Part shown: in pieces, positions 7,366-57,180 of the stretch | Layout: each line of letters begins with the position of its first letter | How positions within the stretch are numbered: position 1 is the first letter of the stretch | From: Armatimonadota bacterium | GTDB lineage: Bacteria; Armatimonadota; Fervidibacteria; Fervidibacterales; Thermosaccharophagaceae | Assembly: GCA_025062195.1 (NCBI GenBank) | Contig: JANXAS010000006.1 | Coordinates: 13,072 to 77,071, forward strand | Direction of reading: 5' to 3' | Length of the DNA: 64,000 nt | The notes under the pieces: generated by a model | What the model was told of the DNA's origin: nothing | Database searches by the model: none | The model's input: the letters and a program-made list of their open reading frames with translations, nothing else | Program-made: the position numbers and the translations under genes

Positions 7366-8520
7366 TCACATCTGCGCTTTGCCGAGCCGCACTGTGAATT
7401 TCATTCTCTGACCGCCACGCACAACTTCAACTATAGCATCAGAATACGGTTCGGCGATCCAAACTTCCCTGAGCAAACTTATGCCAGAGTGTATTGGCTT
7501 ACCATTGAATCGTATAATGATGTCTCCGGCTTGCAATCCAGCATTTGCAGCTGGGCTGCCCTGATGAACCCGCAAGATTAAAGCGCCCTCCATGGGCTTA
7601 ATCCCGTAGCGAGCCACCTTGGGGTCGTTGGCATTCTCAACGACGACGCCAAGATAAGCATGCTCAACCACACCGCCTTTCATGAGCCTGTCAAGCAGCG
7701 CCTTCACAGTATTTATCGGTATGGCAAATCCAATGCCTATACCAACTCTCTCACCGGATGGATTGTAAATGAATGTGTTGATGCCAATCACGTTGCCATT
7801 CAAGTCAAGCAACGGTCCGCCACTGTTGCCCGGATTTATCAAGGCGCTCGTCTGAAGGTATGAATGCACACTCCTTCTGCCCTCAACGGATTCAAATTCC
7901 CTCTCCTTCGCGTTTATGAACCCGATTGTTACGGTTTGCCCAAGCCCAAACGGATTCCCAATTGCTATAGCCCAGTCGCCGACCTCAACCCTGTCGGAAT
8001 CGCCAAACTCAAGCGTCGGTAATGGTCCTTGGGCACTCACTTTTAGGACCGCCAAGTCAAGCCATGGGTCAACACCCACAACCTTAGCTGCAAGCTCGCT
8101 TTTGTCATGCAAACCAACGCGAATGCTCCTTGCGCCCTCAATCACATGTGAGTTTGTGAGTATGTAACCATCGCTTCGGAATATGAAGCCTGAGCCAATA
8201 CCTTCGGAGCGCGGCAACGGTTCCCCGAAGAATTCGTAAAGCAATCGCTCAAATGGGTCGGCAACTACCCTAACAGCCCGTATGTGCACAACTGCTGGCT
8301 CAGCTCGCTTTGCAATTCTTGCAAATGCCTTCTTCCAATCCGATTGTGTCAACCCTGATTGCGCACCAGAAGCGGTATCCCTTACGGGTATAAAAGCGTA
8401 GTTTGATGTTTCGGTTCGCTGCTTTGCGCCGCTCCACCCACCAACCCTGTAACCGAGCGCGAACCCGAGCAGCAAAGAGATGAGCATACCAATCAGAACC
8501 CTCTTTGATACGCGCATCAC
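7366..8520 (-). CDS. htrA: HtrA/DegP-family serine protease with PDZ domain
   Basis: Contains an N-terminal TM, the trypsin-like motifs GYILTNSHVIEG and GNSGGPLLDLNGNVIGINT, and a C-terminal PDZ-like segment (GALILRVHQGSPAANAGLQAGDIII). Confidence 0.9.
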   Translation of the reverse strand: MMRVSKRVLIGMLISLLLGFALGYRVGGWSGAKQRTETSNYAFIPVRDTASGAQSGLTQSDWKKAFARIAKRAEPAVVHIRAVRVVADPFERLLYEFFGEPLPRSEGIGSGFIFRSDGYILTNSHVIEGARSIRVGLHDKSELAAKVVGVDPWLDLAVLKVSAQGPLPTLEFGDSDRVEVGDWAIAIGNPFGLGQTVTIGFINAKEREFESVEGRRSVHSYLQTSALINPGNSGGPLLDLNGNVIGINTFIYNPSGERVGIGIGFAIPINTVKALLDRLMKGGVVEHAYLGVVVENANDPKVARYGIKPMEGALILRVHQGSPAANAGLQAGDIIIRFNGKPIHSGISLLREVWIAEPYSDAIVEVVRGGQRMKFTVRLGKAQM

Positions 8521-38224: not shown

Positions 38225-41200
38225 TCACTGCTTTTCGCCCTTGAAATACCGATATTGGAAGGTGGCGGAATTGCCCGCAGCATCAAAGATGCGCACATCA
38301 AGCGTGTGTTTTCCGGATGGCAATCTATCAACTGGTATGATGAGTTCCTCCTCACGGGAGTCAAAGCTCCCATCGGCACACATCAGCGGATACCACTTAT
38401 CTCCAACTTTAAACTCCGCCCTCAAGACCCATGTGGTCTCATCGCGCACAAATATACGCTGTGGCGGCGCACCGAATGTTTCGTCGCCTACGCCTTTTGC
38501 ATCCTTTACCTCCGTCATCTTTGGCGAGACGACAATCGGCGGCGTATTATCAATGATAAAGCTCGGTGAGACGGCTTCCGCCTTCATCTGATTCAGTGGG
38601 TTGCTTAACACGTCTGAAGCCACAACCTTGAGCACATACCTACCATCGGGTAATTGTGTTGTGTCCCATTCAAGCTTTTGCTTCCGCCAAGTCTGCTCCG
38701 TCGCCGCGCTTTCGGATGTAACCTGTTCAACCAACTCTTCGGAGACCTCTGGCATAGGCGGTGTCTCAACAACTATGCCCGTTTCACCCTTCTGCAGCTC
38801 TGGCCGTTGTCCATCACCTTCTTGTTTAACACCCTCCTGAGCCGATGTATCCTTAGAGCTTTCACTCTCAGCTTTTTTGCCCTTCCTCTCCGGCTTGGCT
38901 TCCTTAACTCGTTGCCAGGTCTTTCCGCCATCACTTGAGCAGTAAATCTCAAATTCAAGTTCGTCACCATTGGCGTCGTATGCCTTCCACTCAACCGTCA
39001 CAGTCTTTGCGATTATAGCGCCCGCAGCCGGCGAGACAAACTGAACGCTTGGCGCAACATTGATGGGCGTGAAAGAAACCACAGCTCCGTAAAGCTTTGG
39101 ATGCGCATTGTTGTTGCTCTCGACTTTTATGCGCCATTGTAACGCTCTTGCTGGTGGAGATTTGATGAGAAAGCCATCCTCCGACAGCTCAGCCCTTTCC
39201 CAATCAGACCATGTCTCATCCGGCAACTCGCTGTTGCCAGAGCGCGATTCAACAACTACAACTGCATCATCGCCGGCATCCATAAGGCACTTCAGGATAC
39301 GCCAATTGGCAATGCTTGGGAGCACAAACGCCGGCGAGATGTATTCGCCAATACCAGATCTATACAGCTTTACAACCTTGCCACTGATTGACATGACGCT
39401 GAGCAAGCCATCGGCGCTTGAAACAAATTGCGCTGCAAACTCGTTGCTAAATTTGAGTGCCTGCCCGTGTGCGCTATCCATATCAACTAAGTAAATAGCG
39501 TGGGGCGTAATTCCGCTCACAATGAGCGTGCCATCGCCTGAGGGATAAATGTCAGCGATGTGCCTTGAGGGTGTATCGCAAAGCAATTTGCACTCGCCGC
39601 TGCCGGATAGGCGAAATATCTCGCCATGCGGCGTTGTGCCAATGTAAACATCGCCATCAGGAGAAGCATACAGTGAGGATATTGCGCCCCTCTTTGTCTC
39701 CCAAATTAGCCTGTAACTTCCATCCGGCAATATGCGCCAAAGTTTCCCCATAGGGTAAGTGCCAGCGTATATTGAGCCATCATTGCCAACTGAAAGCGCC
39801 ATCACATGTTCATCAAGCGCCTCAAGGAGAAGCTTTGTCCGACCATCTTTTGTGACTTGAAACACTCTCCCCGGAAGACCAGTCCCAATGAGCACATCAC
39901 CTGAGCGAGATTGGCGCATTGCCCATATGTGCTTGCAATCAATTTTGAGCCAGACGCCCGGCGTAACTGAACCATCATTGTCGGAGACATTCATTGAGTA
40001 GACTTCGCCATTCGGTGATGTGCCGATGAGCAGCCTATCACCGAGCAGCAGCAAAGCCGTCGGGATGCAATGCAGCCCATCTTTGCCGTGAAAGCTGCAA
40101 ATCGCCTTTGCAGAACCGTTTGAGATGGAGTAGACAATTCCGCTTTGCCACGAACACGCATACAAAGTCCCGTTATCAAAAATTGCGGCTCGCCATATTC
40201 CGCCGTCGCCAAGCTCAACTAAGCTGCTCGCTTTCAAACCGATTCTCACTGAACCGTCGCTTGCCACAAATGCGCCATCGCACTTGCCCCTCATCAACTC
40301 CTTTTGCGACTTAAGTTCAATCTTGCGAGCCTTAAGAGCTCCCTCAGGGAGATGCTGCATCCTATCGCCTTCTGTTGCTCTTTGAGCCGACTCATCCTGA
40401 ATCTTCTCCTCATCACCTTGCTCATCACTCGCTTCACCCGTGAGCTCACCCGCTGGTTCTTCCTCCTCCCCACCCTGAAGTGATAGCGCAAACATGCCCG
40501 ACCACAACTTGGCAAGCACCTTCAATGTCATATTGTTTGAGCCACAGATAGCCTCGCCCTGTATGCCGAGCAACTGACCAAGCTGCTCAAAAAGCTCAAG
40601 TGCGCCCTCCTCTTGACGCATGCGAGCCCTCTCAAGCTCTTGCGATGGTTGCGGCACATCCTTTGTATACTCAGGCTCAATCCTTATGCTCAACATTTTC
40701 ATCCCGCGAACAACATACCCAACATCAATGCACTTTGAGAGTTCGCCATAGCCAACATGAAACATGTCATCGCCCAGGGCATTCATCTCCTCAAGTATCT
40801 TAAAAGGCATATTGTGAGCAAGTCTTCCGTTGACCCATGCATCCATGCTCGGCAACTGAAGACACACAAACAGCTGGTCATTTCTCTCCCTGTTCACCAG
40901 CCCCTCAATGAGCTGCGAGAGCGAGTTTGGGCGGCGCTGCAATATACCAAGACGGTTGCGCAAACGCTGTGCATCAGCACCGCCAGAGACGCCGATTCGC
41001 AGCGTGCAAACTCGCCTTACATCCGGCAGACATAACTTGATTTCCTTTTGCTCCCAACCACCATGAGCTCGGCGCATGTGTATTGTGAGCTTCACTTCGT
41101 CCTTGGGGCGAGCCACGCGCTTATCGCAAACGACACGCTCAATGAAGGCTTCCTGTCTCTTGCTTGTATTCTCGAGCTTTACAAGGACGCTTTTAACATT

Positions 41201-42553
41201 CACCCTCTCAAATCTGTTCTCCTCAAGCAGCAGGAGCGTTTGAATTAGCTCGGCAGTTGAAGGCATTGAATAACCCAAGAGCTTTTCAATCAAGCTCGCC
41301 CTGCTCTCAACGAATGCGTTCTGGCGCTTTATCTTCGGCAAACCATCAGCGCTTATCTCGTAGGATACGAATGTTGTCCCGCTGGGAATACCGCTTGTGA
41401 CATTCGTGAATGCGAGCGAAATGAGCAGATCAACCAGCAGCACAGTCAGCTCACGGTGCCTGAAAACGGATACATTGAAGAGGCGCTTAACACCCCTGTC
41501 ATTATCACTCACAGAGATGCCCAACTGGAGCATCTTCGGGCGCAACCCAACTATGCCAGACATGGCAAATGCCCTGTCCTGAGTGAAAGCACCAACTACG
41601 CTGAGCGGTGATGCGAGTTTGATGGATATGTATTGGCTCGGTAATACGCCATGCACATATGCAGTTGTGAGCGGTATGCTCGTCTCACCAGCGAGAAGGA
41701 ATGGATGCCCAAACGCCAAAATGACATTCCCCTTGCGATATGTTAGAGCCCCTATCGCTGTTAGTTCAATATCACCGCAAGTTAGCTGTGCTCCGACTGC
41801 CGCGCCAGGCTCAAGCGAGACCTTGAGTTTTGGTGCATTGACTGGCTTACCCGGAGATAGCATGGGGATGAGAGCATATGGTTGAAGGAGTTTCTTCAAA
41901 CGCTCAAGCGAAGCCTTCGGCATGCCATGAACCATTAACGGTGTTGCCACAGGGACAAGCAATATCTCATCCTGCGAAACTCTTATCTCACCTTCATCCG
42001 GTAAGCAAGTCCTCAACCTTACCGACTTTATACGCCTTCCTGAAAGGAGTATGCTTCCGCTTACAGGCTTTAACCTCACAGTCTTTGGCATGCTCGCAGC
42101 ACCAGTTGCAGACGCAGCGAAGGTTGACTCAACCATGCTTTTTATCGGCGTCACACCAGCTATCGGTGCTTTTGAGAAAGCCCATGCATATGAAATGGCT
42201 CCAGCAAGCTTTCCAGCAATGTAAACTGGAGAGCCACTCATACCGGCGGCAACTCCCCAGCCATTTGAAACGACTGGACCACCATCAATCCGTATGAGTA
42301 TTAAGTCCATGCCAAAGTCAACGCCTTTGAGCACACCTATGACTGTCACCGGGAGGGTGCTCACCTTAGTGCCATTAAATGTGCTCTTGCAGTAGCCGCG
42401 CATGCCCGTGGATATGCGTTCTACCGGAATGTATTCATTTGGTGGGAGCAACTGATGGAGTTCTTTGGCACAGGTCAATCCACAAGCTGCGGCAAGAAAA
42501 ATCAACACCATAGTGGCGAATCTAATGCGCCAAAGAGCTACAACGCTACTCAT
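38225..42553 (-). CDS. Giant secreted protein: SpoIVB-like peptidase S55 domain, beta-propeller-like repeats and Ig-like C-terminal domains, 1442 aa
   Basis: Signal peptide. AAGMSGSPVYIAGKLAGAISYAW resembles the SpoIVB catalytic-serine region, and ILAFGHPFLLAGETSIPLTTAYV is S55-like. An acidic linker (GGEEEEPAGELTGEASDEQGDEE) follows. Repeats of the form G..G.VY...... come next (LLIGTSPNGEVYSM, VLIGTGLPGRVFQV, IYAGTYPMGKLWRI, VYIGTTPHGEIFRL). The C-terminus reads ...LPDGRYVLKVVASD...IIDNTPP. Confidence 0.75.
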   Translation of the reverse strand: MSSVVALWRIRFATMVLIFLAAACGLTCAKELHQLLPPNEYIPVERISTGMRGYCKSTFNGTKVSTLPVTVIGVLKGVDFGMDLILIRIDGGPVVSNGWGVAAGMSGSPVYIAGKLAGAISYAWAFSKAPIAGVTPIKSMVESTFAASATGAASMPKTVRLKPVSGSILLSGRRIKSVRLRTCLPDEGEIRVSQDEILLVPVATPLMVHGMPKASLERLKKLLQPYALIPMLSPGKPVNAPKLKVSLEPGAAVGAQLTCGDIELTAIGALTYRKGNVILAFGHPFLLAGETSIPLTTAYVHGVLPSQYISIKLASPLSVVGAFTQDRAFAMSGIVGLRPKMLQLGISVSDNDRGVKRLFNVSVFRHRELTVLLVDLLISLAFTNVTSGIPSGTTFVSYEISADGLPKIKRQNAFVESRASLIEKLLGYSMPSTAELIQTLLLLEENRFERVNVKSVLVKLENTSKRQEAFIERVVCDKRVARPKDEVKLTIHMRRAHGGWEQKEIKLCLPDVRRVCTLRIGVSGGADAQRLRNRLGILQRRPNSLSQLIEGLVNRERNDQLFVCLQLPSMDAWVNGRLAHNMPFKILEEMNALGDDMFHVGYGELSKCIDVGYVVRGMKMLSIRIEPEYTKDVPQPSQELERARMRQEEGALELFEQLGQLLGIQGEAICGSNNMTLKVLAKLWSGMFALSLQGGEEEEPAGELTGEASDEQGDEEKIQDESAQRATEGDRMQHLPEGALKARKIELKSQKELMRGKCDGAFVASDGSVRIGLKASSLVELGDGGIWRAAIFDNGTLYACSWQSGIVYSISNGSAKAICSFHGKDGLHCIPTALLLLGDRLLIGTSPNGEVYSMNVSDNDGSVTPGVWLKIDCKHIWAMRQSRSGDVLIGTGLPGRVFQVTKDGRTKLLLEALDEHVMALSVGNDGSIYAGTYPMGKLWRILPDGSYRLIWETKRGAISSLYASPDGDVYIGTTPHGEIFRLSGSGECKLLCDTPSRHIADIYPSGDGTLIVSGITPHAIYLVDMDSAHGQALKFSNEFAAQFVSSADGLLSVMSISGKVVKLYRSGIGEYISPAFVLPSIANWRILKCLMDAGDDAVVVVESRSGNSELPDETWSDWERAELSEDGFLIKSPPARALQWRIKVESNNNAHPKLYGAVVSFTPINVAPSVQFVSPAAGAIIAKTVTVEWKAYDANGDELEFEIYCSSDGGKTWQRVKEAKPERKGKKAESESSKDTSAQEGVKQEGDGQRPELQKGETGIVVETPPMPEVSEELVEQVTSESAATEQTWRKQKLEWDTTQLPDGRYVLKVVASDVLSNPLNQMKAEAVSPSFIIDNTPPIVVSPKMTEVKDAKGVGDETFGAPPQRIFVRDETTWVLRAEFKVGDKWYPLMCADGSFDSREEELIIPVDRLPSGKHTLDVRIFDAAGNSATFQYRYFKGEKQ

Positions 42554-42733
42554 AGTCTAACGCCTCCCTGTCTAAAGGCGTGAAGCCAAAGTAGAGAGCC
42601 ATGAGGGTCACACATGGCTTGAGGTATCCCATTGCCAGCACGACATGCTTAAGACAAGCCTTCGCGCTACCATTGTAACTCAAACCGCAGGGTATAAGCA
42701 AACTGGCAGCGAAAAAACTATATCAGGCTGATA

Positions 42734-43126
42734 GATAATCAGTTTCACTTTTTGCACTACCAAGTCAAGTTCAATGTTGAGTGCAATGTTCTGAATTCAA
42801 AGTTTGCTTCGGAGGGCGAGGCTATTGCCGAACCGAAAAATCTGCGTGCCATGTAGGGGCAGGAAAAGCCTGTCCGAAAAATTCGGCAAGCCAGTAGGCT
42901 TGCCCTACGAGGACAAAACGAAAATTCTTGGCAAACCAAGGTTGTGCCATTAAAGATGACGGAAAAAATCGGAAGGCGAGGCTACTGCCGAGCCGAAAAG
43001 AAAATTTTCCTCGCCGTCTAAAGACGGCGCAAGAGAATTCGTCACTGACCATGGGCTAAAGCCCATAGCATGGTTTTGAAAAGCGCATACCAACAATATT
43101 TGAAGCAAAGAGCGAAACTGATTATC
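42734..43126. repeat. Inverted-repeat-bracketed array of short hairpins (MITE-like or structured-RNA locus)
   Basis: 22-nt arms GATAATCAGTTTCACTTTTTGC (42734..42755) and GCAAAGAGCGAAACTGATTATC (43105..43126) are 20/22 complementary. The interior holds several hairpins and a 32-nt direct repeat (42809..42840 vs 42969..43000, 28/32). Confidence 0.6.
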
Positions 43127-43151
43127 CGACAGACATCAGGGGGTTAATCCG

Positions 43152-43775
43152 ATGTTAGTTTGCATAACTCGGGTAGTATGCTGCTTTCACCTCTTCACAT
43201 TGAAGCCATCACATGAGGGATGTGATGATTCTGGTGAGGGCAGACTGCTGCCCATCATCTGCATCCCGATAGGTGTTGATGAGGATTTGCTCGCGATGGC
43301 GCTGAGAGAAGTTGAAAGAAGCCTTCCCGGAACAAAGTGCATAATACAGCGTGCTGAATCACCCATAGACTTATCAACAGCCTTCGTCAGGCGACGAAAC
43401 CAGCATCTCGCTGATACCATCCTTAAGAGCTTACCAGCTCCTGAGGGTGATAGCCGTCTTATCGGTGTCGTTGATGTGGATATCTACAGCGGGAGCCTTA
43501 ACTTCGTCTTCGGTATAGCTGAGTTGCCTGGCAAAAGGGCGCTCGTATCAACATACAGGTTGCAATTGGGTAATGTGCCGCATGAGCTTTTAGTTGAACG
43601 CCTGACGAAGGAGATAGTCCATGAGCTTGGGCACACATTCGGATTGCGACATTGCAGCAACAAGAGGTGCGTAATGTGCTTCAGCAACTCCATTATGGAC
43701 ACGGACTATAAGTCGGCAAGGCTTTGCGAAATTTGCTTTGAGAAATACCGCCATGCAACATCGCGCCCTGACTAA
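43152..43775 (+). CDS. amzA: Archaemetzincin-like zinc metallopeptidase (peptidase M54 pattern)
   Basis: HELGHTFGLRHCSNKRCVMCFSNSIMDTDYKSARLCEIC fits the archaemetzincin signature HExxHxxGxxxCxxxxCxM...CxxC. AGGGGG lies 7 nt upstream of the ATG. It has ~30 extra N-terminal residues. Confidence 0.75.
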   Translation: MLVCITRVVCCFHLFTLKPSHEGCDDSGEGRLLPIICIPIGVDEDLLAMALREVERSLPGTKCIIQRAESPIDLSTAFVRRRNQHLADTILKSLPAPEGDSRLIGVVDVDIYSGSLNFVFGIAELPGKRALVSTYRLQLGNVPHELLVERLTKEIVHELGHTFGLRHCSNKRCVMCFSNSIMDTDYKSARLCEICFEKYRHATSRPD

Positions 43776-44142: not shown

Positions 44143-44212
44143 GGCGTTTTGTGTAAAGGCGTTTTGTGTAAAGGCGCTTTGTGTAAAGGCGCTTTGTGTA
44201 AAGGCGTTTTTG
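44143..44212. repeat. 15-bp tandem repeat GGCG(T/C)TTTGTGTAAA, four full units plus a partial fifth
   Basis: Units at 44143, 44158, 44173 and 44188; the first two have T and the last two C at position 5. A partial unit starts at 44203. The repeat lies in the convergent spacer between the amzA-like gene and the 330-aa membrane protein gene. Confidence 0.9.
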
Positions 44213-47954: not shown

Positions 47955-48029
47955 TGGAGCTGGCGGCGGGATTTGAACCCGCGACCTGGGGATTACAAAT
48001 CCCCCGCTCTGCCGCTGAGCTACACCAGC
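47955..48029 (-). tRNA. tRNA-Thr (anticodon UGU), CCA encoded
   Basis: Hand-folded cloverleaf from the reverse complement: GCTGGTG TA GCTC AGCGGCA GAGC G GGGGA TTTGTAA TCCCC AGGTC GCGGG TTCAAAT CCCGC CGCCAGC T CCA. All four stems pair, with one G-U in the acceptor stem. Confidence 0.9.
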
Positions 48030-56055: not shown

Positions 56056-56240
56056 ACTTGGCAATATTTTGGCATTGCGAGCCAACTTAGACGAACATAT
56101 GTATGCAGCATAATGTATAAAGAGCATTTTGATCATGAAAGCATGCTATAAGCTTTAGCCATAGCCTTTTATGATTCTTATTATGAACGCCACCTTCAAA
56201 GGACGGAAGAGGCTTGTTGATGCTCTTTACCGTAAAGCTG

Positions 56241-56359
56241 TAGAAGTTACACAGATGACGTTACTTAGTGAGGGTTAACGACAGCCCGCCAAGCACTATT
56301 AAAAGCAAATGATGTGGGCAGCTTGACAGCTATCCCTATACTCATGTGCGTAACTTTTA
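56241..56359 (+). repeat. Copy D1 of the structured repeat family (first of a tandem pair)
   Basis: Arms AGAAGTTACACAGATG / CATGTGCGTAACTTTT; centre ...CAAATGATGTGGGCAGCTTGACAGCTATCCC.... Confidence 0.65.
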
Positions 56360-56364
56360 TGTTA

Positions 56365-56487
56365 AAGGACCTGCGCAGTTGGCGTTGTTTCATGGGGGCA
56401 GATGACGGTCTGCTCGAAAAATCATCGCAAAAAGTTGCTGGTTCGGGCAGATTTCATCCGCTCCCACATTCAACCGCGTAACTCCTA
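56365..56487 (+). repeat. Copy D2 of the structured repeat family (second of a tandem pair)
   Basis: Arms AGGACCTGCGCAGTTG / CAACCGCGTAACTCCT pair at 13/16 positions. Hairpin 1 is GGCAGA-TGACGG-TCTGCT, whose stem differs from copy B by compensatory changes. Confidence 0.7.
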
Positions 56488-57180
56488 TGTTATTGGCGGA
56501 TAATTTTCCTGGGACATGATACAGGCTAAAGCCAGCAGTCATTGACGAAATTTTCTGGGTGCAACCTTTAGAGGGCGAAAATCTCTCACAGGATGAGTTT
56601 AAGCTTGCCGATTTTAGGACACATTTCCCGATGAGTGAAATCTTTCGGCAAGGCAGCAATTATGCCTTACAATTTGTTGCGGCAGTAACCTTGCCCTCCC
56701 ACGCTGCTACGAATTCGGTGATCATTCGTTTTCGCCATTAACGGCTGGCTAAAGCCAGGGGGATGGATCACCATGAAGCAATAGATTTTTGGGCGAAGAG
56801 TTCTATTACGAGAATCGCTCTTTACTACGAACTTTGTTGTTTGAGTTTGTAGTTAGCCACGAAGCGAAAGCGGGGTGGCGAAAAAATTAGTGCGTAGTGC
56901 GATGTAGAGAGTGCAGCCCTGTTTTGCGCTTTGCACTCCGCATTAGCACTTTGTATTTTGTCCGCACTTCTCACTCAGTTACGGCACTCCGCTTAGCTCC
57001 GTGCCTAACTGCGAACCAACAGACTTTAAAGTAAGGAGCGCCGAGAATTTTTTAAAAACGGCATTAATTGTGGCATCTTTGCGGGCAAGCGGTGAGATAA
57101 AAGCCATGTTGTTCGTCAAAAGTTGGCACATTTGTGGAAGTGCTGCAGAAAAATAAGAGTTGGTGGGGGGTGTAAAATTA

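Follow-up and report, generated by a model that had tools for sequence, protein, structure and literature searches.

Results

Organization of the locus and its syntenic relatives

The element lies in a 598-nt spacer (42554-43151) between two divergently oriented genes of the window, by which we mean the whole 64-kb stretch of DNA analysed. The rightward gene is amzA-like and encodes an archaemetzincin-type peptidase, and the leftward gene encodes a secreted-type, S55-like protein with Ig-like domains; the identities that the initial annotation proposed for both genes agree with the domain matches listed in Table 1. Seven relatives carry AmzA proteins of 61-70% identity and, where the contig is long enough, the same gene order, with the S55-like gene diverging from amzA and amzA followed by a 320-aa gene, Metallophos and Iso_dh. 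Their spacers measure 171, 124, 334, 334, 280, 244 and 134 nt, compared with 598 nt in the window. Comparison of the orthologous spacers, which the initial annotation had recommended, finds the element absent from all seven relatives: neither the arms nor the subterminal blocks occur there, and the sole stretch that aligns is a 24-nt box located outside the element, to its left. This box contains overlapping, back-to-back -10-like hexamers, of which the leftward TACAAT is invariant, and as read from the sequence it is probably the ancestral bidirectional promoter core of the S55-like gene and amzA.

In L003, the closest-spaced relative, 37 nt separate the end of the box from the amzA ATG. The corresponding interval in the window consists of 49 nt, the 393-nt element, and 25 nt that include the AGGGGG ribosome-binding site of amzA. 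As judged by these box-to-ATG distances, the extra length of the window spacer is essentially the element itself.

The element-free relatives L005 (2583-2601) and L030 (~548-566) carry unrelated hairpins of their own in the interval from the box to amzA, and hairpins are likewise found in L007. The L005/L030 hairpin, GGCAAGCC-GTAA-GCTTGCC, resembles the window hairpin at 42885-42904. We considered orthology between the two and rejected it, since the match is short, palindromic and marginally above shuffles, and is probably due to chance. The hexamers GGCAAG and CTTGCC each occur more than 40 times in the window.

Table 1. Coordinates of the element, its parts and the flanking features in the window
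Feature	Position	Strand	Remarks
Divergent secreted-type protein gene, 1442 aa, S55-like with Ig-like domains	38225..42553	-	weak precomputed S55 match on orthologues
Conserved 24-nt box TTCGCGCTACCATTGTAACTCAAA	42661..42684		outside the element, to the left; in all seven syntenic relatives
-10-like hexamer TACCAT in box	42668-73	+	overlaps TACAAT
-10-like hexamer TACAAT in box	42677-72	-	invariant
Candidate target-site duplication ATCAGG, left	42722..42727		last base overlaps outer extension
Outer left extension GCTGATA	42727..42733		imperfectly inverted relative to 43127-43134; partly in common with L017 (ACCGACA); nhmmer alignment begins at 42727
Left terminal inverted repeat GATAATCAGTTTCACTTTTTGC	42734..42755		21/22 identical to L017 left arm
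Left subterminal block	42756..42842	+	~80% identical to L017; unit TCGGAGGGCGAGGCTATTGCCGAACCGAAAA; three 9-mers TKCAAWGTT
TKCAAWGTT 9-mers	42770-78, 42782-90, 42796-804	+	in left subterminal block
Variable core (hairpin array)	42843..43071	+	not conserved in L017
Perfect hairpins in core	42885-42904, 42927-42940, 43012-43029, 43051-43066		
A-rich linkers in core	42875, 42919, 42962, 42994		
Strain differences inside core	42963, 42973, 42978, 43045		
Right subterminal block AACAA..ATTT..TTGAAG.AAGAGCG	43072..43104	+	common to L017
Right terminal inverted repeat GCAAAGAGCGAAACTGATTATC	43105..43126		homologous to L017 right arm, L017 2598-2617
Outer right extension CGACAGAC	43127..43134		CGACA identical in L017; BLAST homology to 43131; nhmmer right block to 43141
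Candidate target-site duplication ATCAGG, right	43135..43140		overlaps amzA ribosome-binding site
amzA ribosome-binding site AGGGGG	43138-43143		
amzA-like gene, Peptidase_M54 (archaemetzincin-type), 207 aa	43152..43775	+	Peptidase_M54 E 5e-24

Architecture of the element

The element measures 393 nt, or ~407 nt when the imperfect outer extensions are counted. It is bounded by a 22-nt inverted repeat, the arms of which are complementary at 20 of 22 positions (91%) and enclose 349 nt. A search of the 64 kb at up to three mismatches returns just these two arms, with 0.01 matches expected from shuffles. The description given in the initial annotation holds: the coordinates and pairing of the inverted repeat, which is unique in the 64 kb, and the positions of all four hairpins in the interior. 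The right arm does lie close to the amzA start, although it ends 25 nt before the ATG (43152) and not 26 nt. Similarly, the direct repeat in the interior has the 160-nt spacing given for it, but extends over 31 nt at 90% identity (42809-42839 versus 42969-42999) where 32 nt had been reported. The spacer motif said to recur between the hairpins does so as described, with CGAAAA occurring five times on the + strand at spacings of 41, 44, 43 and 32 nt. These five occurrences within the 598-nt spacer (~0.2 expected) compare with 21 on the + strand of the whole 64 kb, and the - strand of the spacer has none; two of the five fall within the direct repeat. The strict form CGAAAAATY is not enriched, with 3 occurrences window-wide against 1.7 expected.

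The left subterminal block contains a tandem 12-mer, and its 9-mer is also duplicated in the second copy of the element, L017, which is described below. Because the CGACA of the outer right extension is identical in that copy, the element probably extends past the 22-nt arm on its right side.

Internal origin of the core and differences between strains

Part of the core can be traced to the left end of the element. Positions 42901-42999 are a degenerate duplicate of the left block 42754-42840 (nhmmer E 4e-6), and a 29-nt unit is present in inverted form at 42882-42910, which is 76% complementary to 42969-42997. In accordance with this, the + strand minimum free energy structure contains a 24-bp pairing of 42803-42829 with 42890-42917. 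The CCGAAAA tail of the 29-nt unit and of its derivatives accounts for several of the "constant linkers". The window contains three 29-nt units and L017 one; an nhmmer profile of the unit run over 290 kb, including the window, returns three in-family copies only, the next matches having E values of 0.18-0.27.

Three contigs encode an identical AmzA protein, and the two of them that were retrieved are NCBI MAG assemblies labelled Armatimonadota. GCA_033582355.1 is 100% identical to the window over the 6.6 kb compared, and GCA_026418135.1 (L001) differs from it by seven point differences in 6.6 kb, four of which fall within 83 nt of the core (Table 1); one of the four, G42978A, breaks a predicted pair.

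Two other repetitive regions of the window deserve mention. In the convergent spacer downstream of amzA, 44143-44205 is a tandem repeat of the 15-nt unit TTTGTGTAAAGGCGY with ~4 copies in the window; it is 30 nt longer in L001, which corresponds to two extra units and makes it a strain-variable VNTR. Farther away, a region of ~1.1 kb (56056-57160) without an ORF of at least 100 aa is rich in hairpins and CGAAAA-type motifs, in a style that recalls the core of the element; its hairpins include CTGGC-TAAA-GCCAG at 56745-56758 and a long imperfect hairpin at 56647-56695. It has no significant similarity to the element core and no Rfam match (best E 0.078).

A second copy at an unrelated locus

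We scanned 185,579 genomes, one per species and the window's own genome not among them, with the terminal inverted repeat pattern GATAATCAGTTTCNCTNTTTG; the exact-pattern scan misses diverged copies. Twelve loci were returned, of which 11 are single chance matches without a partner arm nearby and one is a true relative. This copy, L017, belongs to the Armatimonadota MAG SKYB58 (GCA_025060305.1), in which a single arm matched the exact pattern, and spans 246 nt in total (2372-2617). It is 80% identical to the window over the left 115 nt (BLAST E 2.9e-22) and 88% identical over the right 33 nt (BLAST); an nhmmer profile of the right block scores E 1.7e-16 in the window and E 2.6e-13 in L032, whose positions ~7764-8191 correspond to L017 2219-2646. 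The arms of L017 are complementary at 18 of 20 positions (90%) and stand 206 nt apart. Its genomic context is unrelated to that of the window element: a GFO/IDH/MocA oxidoreductase gene ends on one side of it and a porin gene begins on the other, and the copy is oriented against local transcription.

The two copies have the following in common: (i) the arms; (ii) the left block, with three TKCAAWGTT and TCGGARGGCGAGGCTAY-N7-CCGAAAA; (iii) the right block, ..AACAA..TTGAAG.AAGAGCGAAAC.GATTATC; and (iv) beyond the right arm, CGACA..TCAGG. The core of L017 is different and shorter. It has no hairpin array, folds weakly (z -2.2, -3.1) and contains no terminator-like sites. Thus, the hairpin array is specific to the window copy, as it is built partly from rearranged copies of the left block, differs between strains and is missing in L017, and to judge from these comparisons it looks like a copy-specific, unconstrained and rearrangement-prone core rather than a conserved device.

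The comparison divides the claims of the initial annotation. A discrete element bounded by inverted repeats had rightly been flagged, and recurs at the unrelated L017 locus. The idea of an arrangement of unknown class, in which a constant linker joins variable hairpins, is not supported, given the absence of the array from L017, the internal duplication and the strain differences. By the yardstick of conservation that the initial annotation had itself proposed, the array is refuted as a functional device: neither the hairpins nor their periodicity are conserved in the related genomes compared.

Porin homologues place the SKYB58 lineage close to Fervidibacter (class Fervidibacteria), a hyperthermophilic group. 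When we searched for an empty site by means of porin orthologues, the region upstream of the L017 porin proved to be rearranged relative to Fervidibacter relatives, so that there is no usable empty site. Within L017 2219-2646, nucleotide homology between SKYB58 and Fervidibacter stops 32 nt upstream of the porin start, and the gene upstream of the porin is the GFO oxidoreductase in SKYB58 and MobA/MobB in L026-L029; since both the homology and the gene order change here, the L017 copy lies beside a synteny breakpoint. Just outside its right arm, L017 2623-2638 forms a partial arm-like repeat, TTCAGGTAAAAAGCGA, that is 81% identical to L017 2591-2606 and matches 9 nt of the left arm with perfect complementarity. 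On sequence grounds this repeat may have been left behind by a second end or by a nested insertion.

Folding, signals and coding capacity

Folding on both strands had been suggested in the initial annotation, and the whole element indeed folds better than shuffles on either strand, with z-scores of -7.0 (+) and -6.5 (-). With the arms removed, the core scores -5.95 (+) and -2.94 (-). Rfam 15 gives no match above the gathering score at the element, the best match in 42400-43300 at permissive thresholds having an E value of 0.38; the sole Rfam/ARAGORN match in the window is a tRNA-Thr (TGT) gene on the - strand (47955-48029).

No sigma-70-like promoter was found in 42300-43151 by a simple scan, for which the promoter consensus of the phylum may differ, and inspection of the conserved blocks by eye likewise gave nothing convincing. 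The initial annotation had raised the possibility that the element supplies or modulates the amzA promoter; the conserved promoter-like box is situated to the left of the element. Two adjacent terminator-like modules, each a hairpin with a U-tract, are present on the - strand (42904-42885 and 42940-42927). The region is not enriched in such sites, 3 being present in 2.1 kb where shuffles give 2.2 +/- 1.7. On the sense strand the tracts that follow the hairpins are A-rich rather than U-rich, so that intrinsic terminators are not predicted there. A CRISPR array was rejected, as the constant part is just ~8-10 nt compared with the repeats of at least 23 nt that would be needed and TRF finds no array; helically phased A-tracts, which would produce DNA curvature, were rejected as well (Rayleigh p ~0.5).

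Both copies contain short ORFs only, and a chimeric six-frame query built from the two, designed to catch copies in Logan and ENA assemblies by way of spurious ORF calls, has no match at E<=10 among 5.8 billion proteins. From these results, together with the absence of an Rfam match, we take the element to be non-coding. A conserved small ORF was entertained and dismissed: a 34-aa peptide in the window and a 26-aa peptide in L017 are similar, but the start codon and ribosome-binding site are not conserved, and the pair displays no clear third-codon-position bias in substitutions and has no homologues.

Flanking repeats and copy number

In L017 a perfect 5-bp CGACA abuts both arms. The flanks of the window copy read TGATA/CGACA (3/5) in the same register; alternatively, a perfect ATCAGG lies 7-8 nt outside the arms. 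Because the registers of the flanking repeats disagree between the copies, and the right flank CGACA..TCAGG is common to both, unlike random target sites, the true ends and the target-site duplication are uncertain by ~15 nt. With the duplication read as ATCAG(G), the reconstructed, predicted empty site is ...ACTATATCAGGGGGTTAATCCGATG.

Two loci are known for the family. An arm search, blastn-short with the spacer and nhmmer profiles of both subterminal blocks revealed no further copies in the 64 kb of the window or the 290 kb of compared sequence. A scan of JGI metagenomes with TCGGARGGCGAGGCTAY-N7-CCGAAAA gave 0 matches and one with a degenerate arm pattern gave 5, all due to chance; the viral scan gave 0, and blastn against plasmids and phages gave no match. 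Among the 185,579 genomes, the pattern scan returned no paired arms around a transposase that would indicate a cognate autonomous insertion sequence. With two loci only and no more from the genome and metagenome scans, the copy number appears low, unlike the high numbers usual for MITEs. The initial annotation had considered that many near-identical copies flanked by target-site duplications would mark the element as a plain MITE; the finding is halfway, as the single copy found elsewhere is diverged and the flanking repeats are ambiguous.

Discussion

A probable MITE-like insertion

We propose, with a probability of roughly 0.6, that the element is a non-autonomous, non-coding, MITE-like transposable insertion, and that it represents a small family known only from two hot-spring genomes of Fervidibacter-related Armatimonadota. 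The assignment fits because the element is small, non-coding, bounded by terminal inverted repeats (TIRs) and provided with conserved subterminal repeats, is absent in syntenic relatives and recurs at an unrelated locus. The copies, at 393 and 246 nt, fall under the ~600 bp of non-coding MITEs; the arms are conserved between them; and the family is both dispersed, with its second copy elsewhere, and subject to presence and absence, being missing in the seven syntenic relatives. The class is thus MITE-like, not a proven MITE. What weighs against this reading, besides the two known loci, the ambiguous flanks, the rearranged porin upstream region and the negative search for an autonomous partner, is the + strand fold of the core (z -5.95), which could reflect RNA-level selection rather than junk.

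If the MITE-like assignment is correct, the TIRs (22-24 nt) together with the left (~90 nt) and right (~35 nt) subterminal blocks would be the sites for a transposase supplied in trans. Insertion would have taken place in the amzA leader, at a point 49 nt rightward of the ancestral promoter box and directly before the ribosome-binding site. The core of the window copy would then have grown by a degenerate internal duplication of ~100 nt, giving the 160-nt spacing, and by an inverted 29-nt unit, and would still be changing between strains. Should amzA still be transcribed from the box, we infer that the mRNA leader would grow from tens of nt to ~470 nt. The arms might pair in this leader and loop out the insertion, so that 12 nt would separate the closing stem from the ribosome-binding site downstream; any effect of the element on amzA is putative. 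A more ambitious proposal, to which we give little credence, is that the unit is a regulatory cassette that spread by mobility and was then domesticated, acting either as a recombinase-flipped switch for surface-protein loci of hyperthermophilic Fervidibacteria or as a self-folding leader RNA with a closing stem and hairpin/A-tract modules that would tune amzA at high temperature.

Alternative explanations

The main alternative to a MITE-like insertion is an inverton, in which a recombinase would flip the segment bounded by the inverted repeats and so determine whether the leftward surface-protein gene or the gene on the right is expressed, one invertase serving several loci with common inverted repeats and a promoter-bearing block. 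Genes for secreted and outer-membrane proteins are typical targets of phase variation, and the left end lies at a similar distance upstream of the start of a secreted or outer-membrane gene in both copies: 181 nt in the window (S55-like/Ig-domain) and 186 nt in L017 (porin). Inverted repeats of 20-22 nt flank 206-349 nt in the two copies, conservation covers the arms and a single asymmetric internal block, the remainder being variable, and ATCAG-like motifs recur around the ends. Against these similarities, a single orientation is seen in the available assemblies, which are assembled contigs, and the simple scan places no sigma-70-like promoter in the window element and a single site, at about shuffle level, in the non-conserved core of L017. 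The neighbouring genes scanned at both loci contain no recombinase domain, although a recombinase could act in trans. Furthermore, the S55-like gene has a conserved TACAAT box of its own in all relatives, located outside the element, and absence from every syntenic relative fits an insertion better than an ancestral switch. On balance, we regard an inverton as unlikely. A structured RNA is slightly less probable still. Here the element would be a cis-acting 5' leader of amzA or a small RNA gene, with a functional conserved 5' block and arm stem and the hairpin array as its body, and it would explain why the + strand folds far better than shuffles, whole or as core, compared with the - strand core. 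A domain closed by the arms 12 nt upstream of the ribosome-binding site and a sense strand free of terminators are also consistent with it. The L017 copy, by contrast, runs against local transcription, folds weakly and has no hairpins; Rfam gives no match; the arm mismatches follow no compensatory or strand-consistent pattern in the two copies; and the strain difference G42978A disrupts a predicted pair.

Growth of the spacer in place, by slippage and duplication or by a REP/BIME-like build-up of genome-wide palindromic units with the inverted repeat incidental, is the least probable of the explanations, and we consider it very improbable. The internal duplication and inverted unit of the core are what such growth would produce, the next spacer contains a VNTR, and L005, L030 and L007 carry unrelated hairpins at this location, including GGCAAGCC..GCTTGCCC, similar to 42885-42904. 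That similarity is, however, short, palindromic and in L005 barely above shuffles, and the 29-nt unit is not dispersed, its best other matches in the 64 kb having E values of ~0.2. Growth in place cannot explain why a second genome has the arms and both subterminal blocks at an unrelated locus; local growth without mobility is largely refuted by the L017 copy.

Significance

Our literature search yielded no account of mobile DNA in Armatimonadota, nor did we come across a MITE reported from Fervidibacteria. A defined TIR family would provide an entry point for studying the genome plasticity of this hyperthermophilic Fervidibacteria lineage, and the window copy provides a natural case in which an insertion of ~400 nt is tolerated directly upstream of a ribosome-binding site. 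Otherwise the feature is of an ordinary kind; it opens no new class and resolves no open question.

Comparison with known systems

The element resembles invertons such as fimS and the invertible promoters of Bacteroides in being a segment of a few hundred bp, bounded by inverted repeats common to several loci and located upstream of surface-protein genes; a second orientation, an internal promoter and an invertase set invertons apart, none of these having been observed for the element. With the REP/BIME sequences of enterobacteria it has in common imperfect palindromic units that alternate in orientation (U0 +, U2 - and U4 + in the element) and short recurring linkers. The palindromic unit of REP/BIME is nevertheless the conserved repeat and occurs genome-wide, whereas the unit of the element is not dispersed, its hairpins are mostly unrelated and the whole is bounded by TIRs.

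The pneumococcal BOX element consists of boxA, a variable number of boxB units and boxC. Its boxB units are near-identical, in tandem and present at high copy number, in contrast to the strongly diverged modules of the element, one of them inverted, in its two known copies. In both, conserved complementary ends surround a modular middle of varying length, the modules of the element being periodic at ~42 nt and 160 nt.

Among bacterial MITEs, Correia/NEMIS of Neisseria and ERIC/IRU of enterobacteria are co-transcribed with neighbouring genes. These units are ~100-155 nt long and occur in tens to hundreds of copies, compared with 246-393 nt and two copies for the element, with which they have no sequence similarity. 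No TA duplication is seen in the element, and a promoter, an IHF site and RNase III processing are features of the known MITEs. Like the element, however, Correia/NEMIS and ERIC/IRU are small, non-coding, TIR-bounded intergenic units located by a gene start, would form a long arm-arm stem if transcribed, and are present or absent between related genomes.
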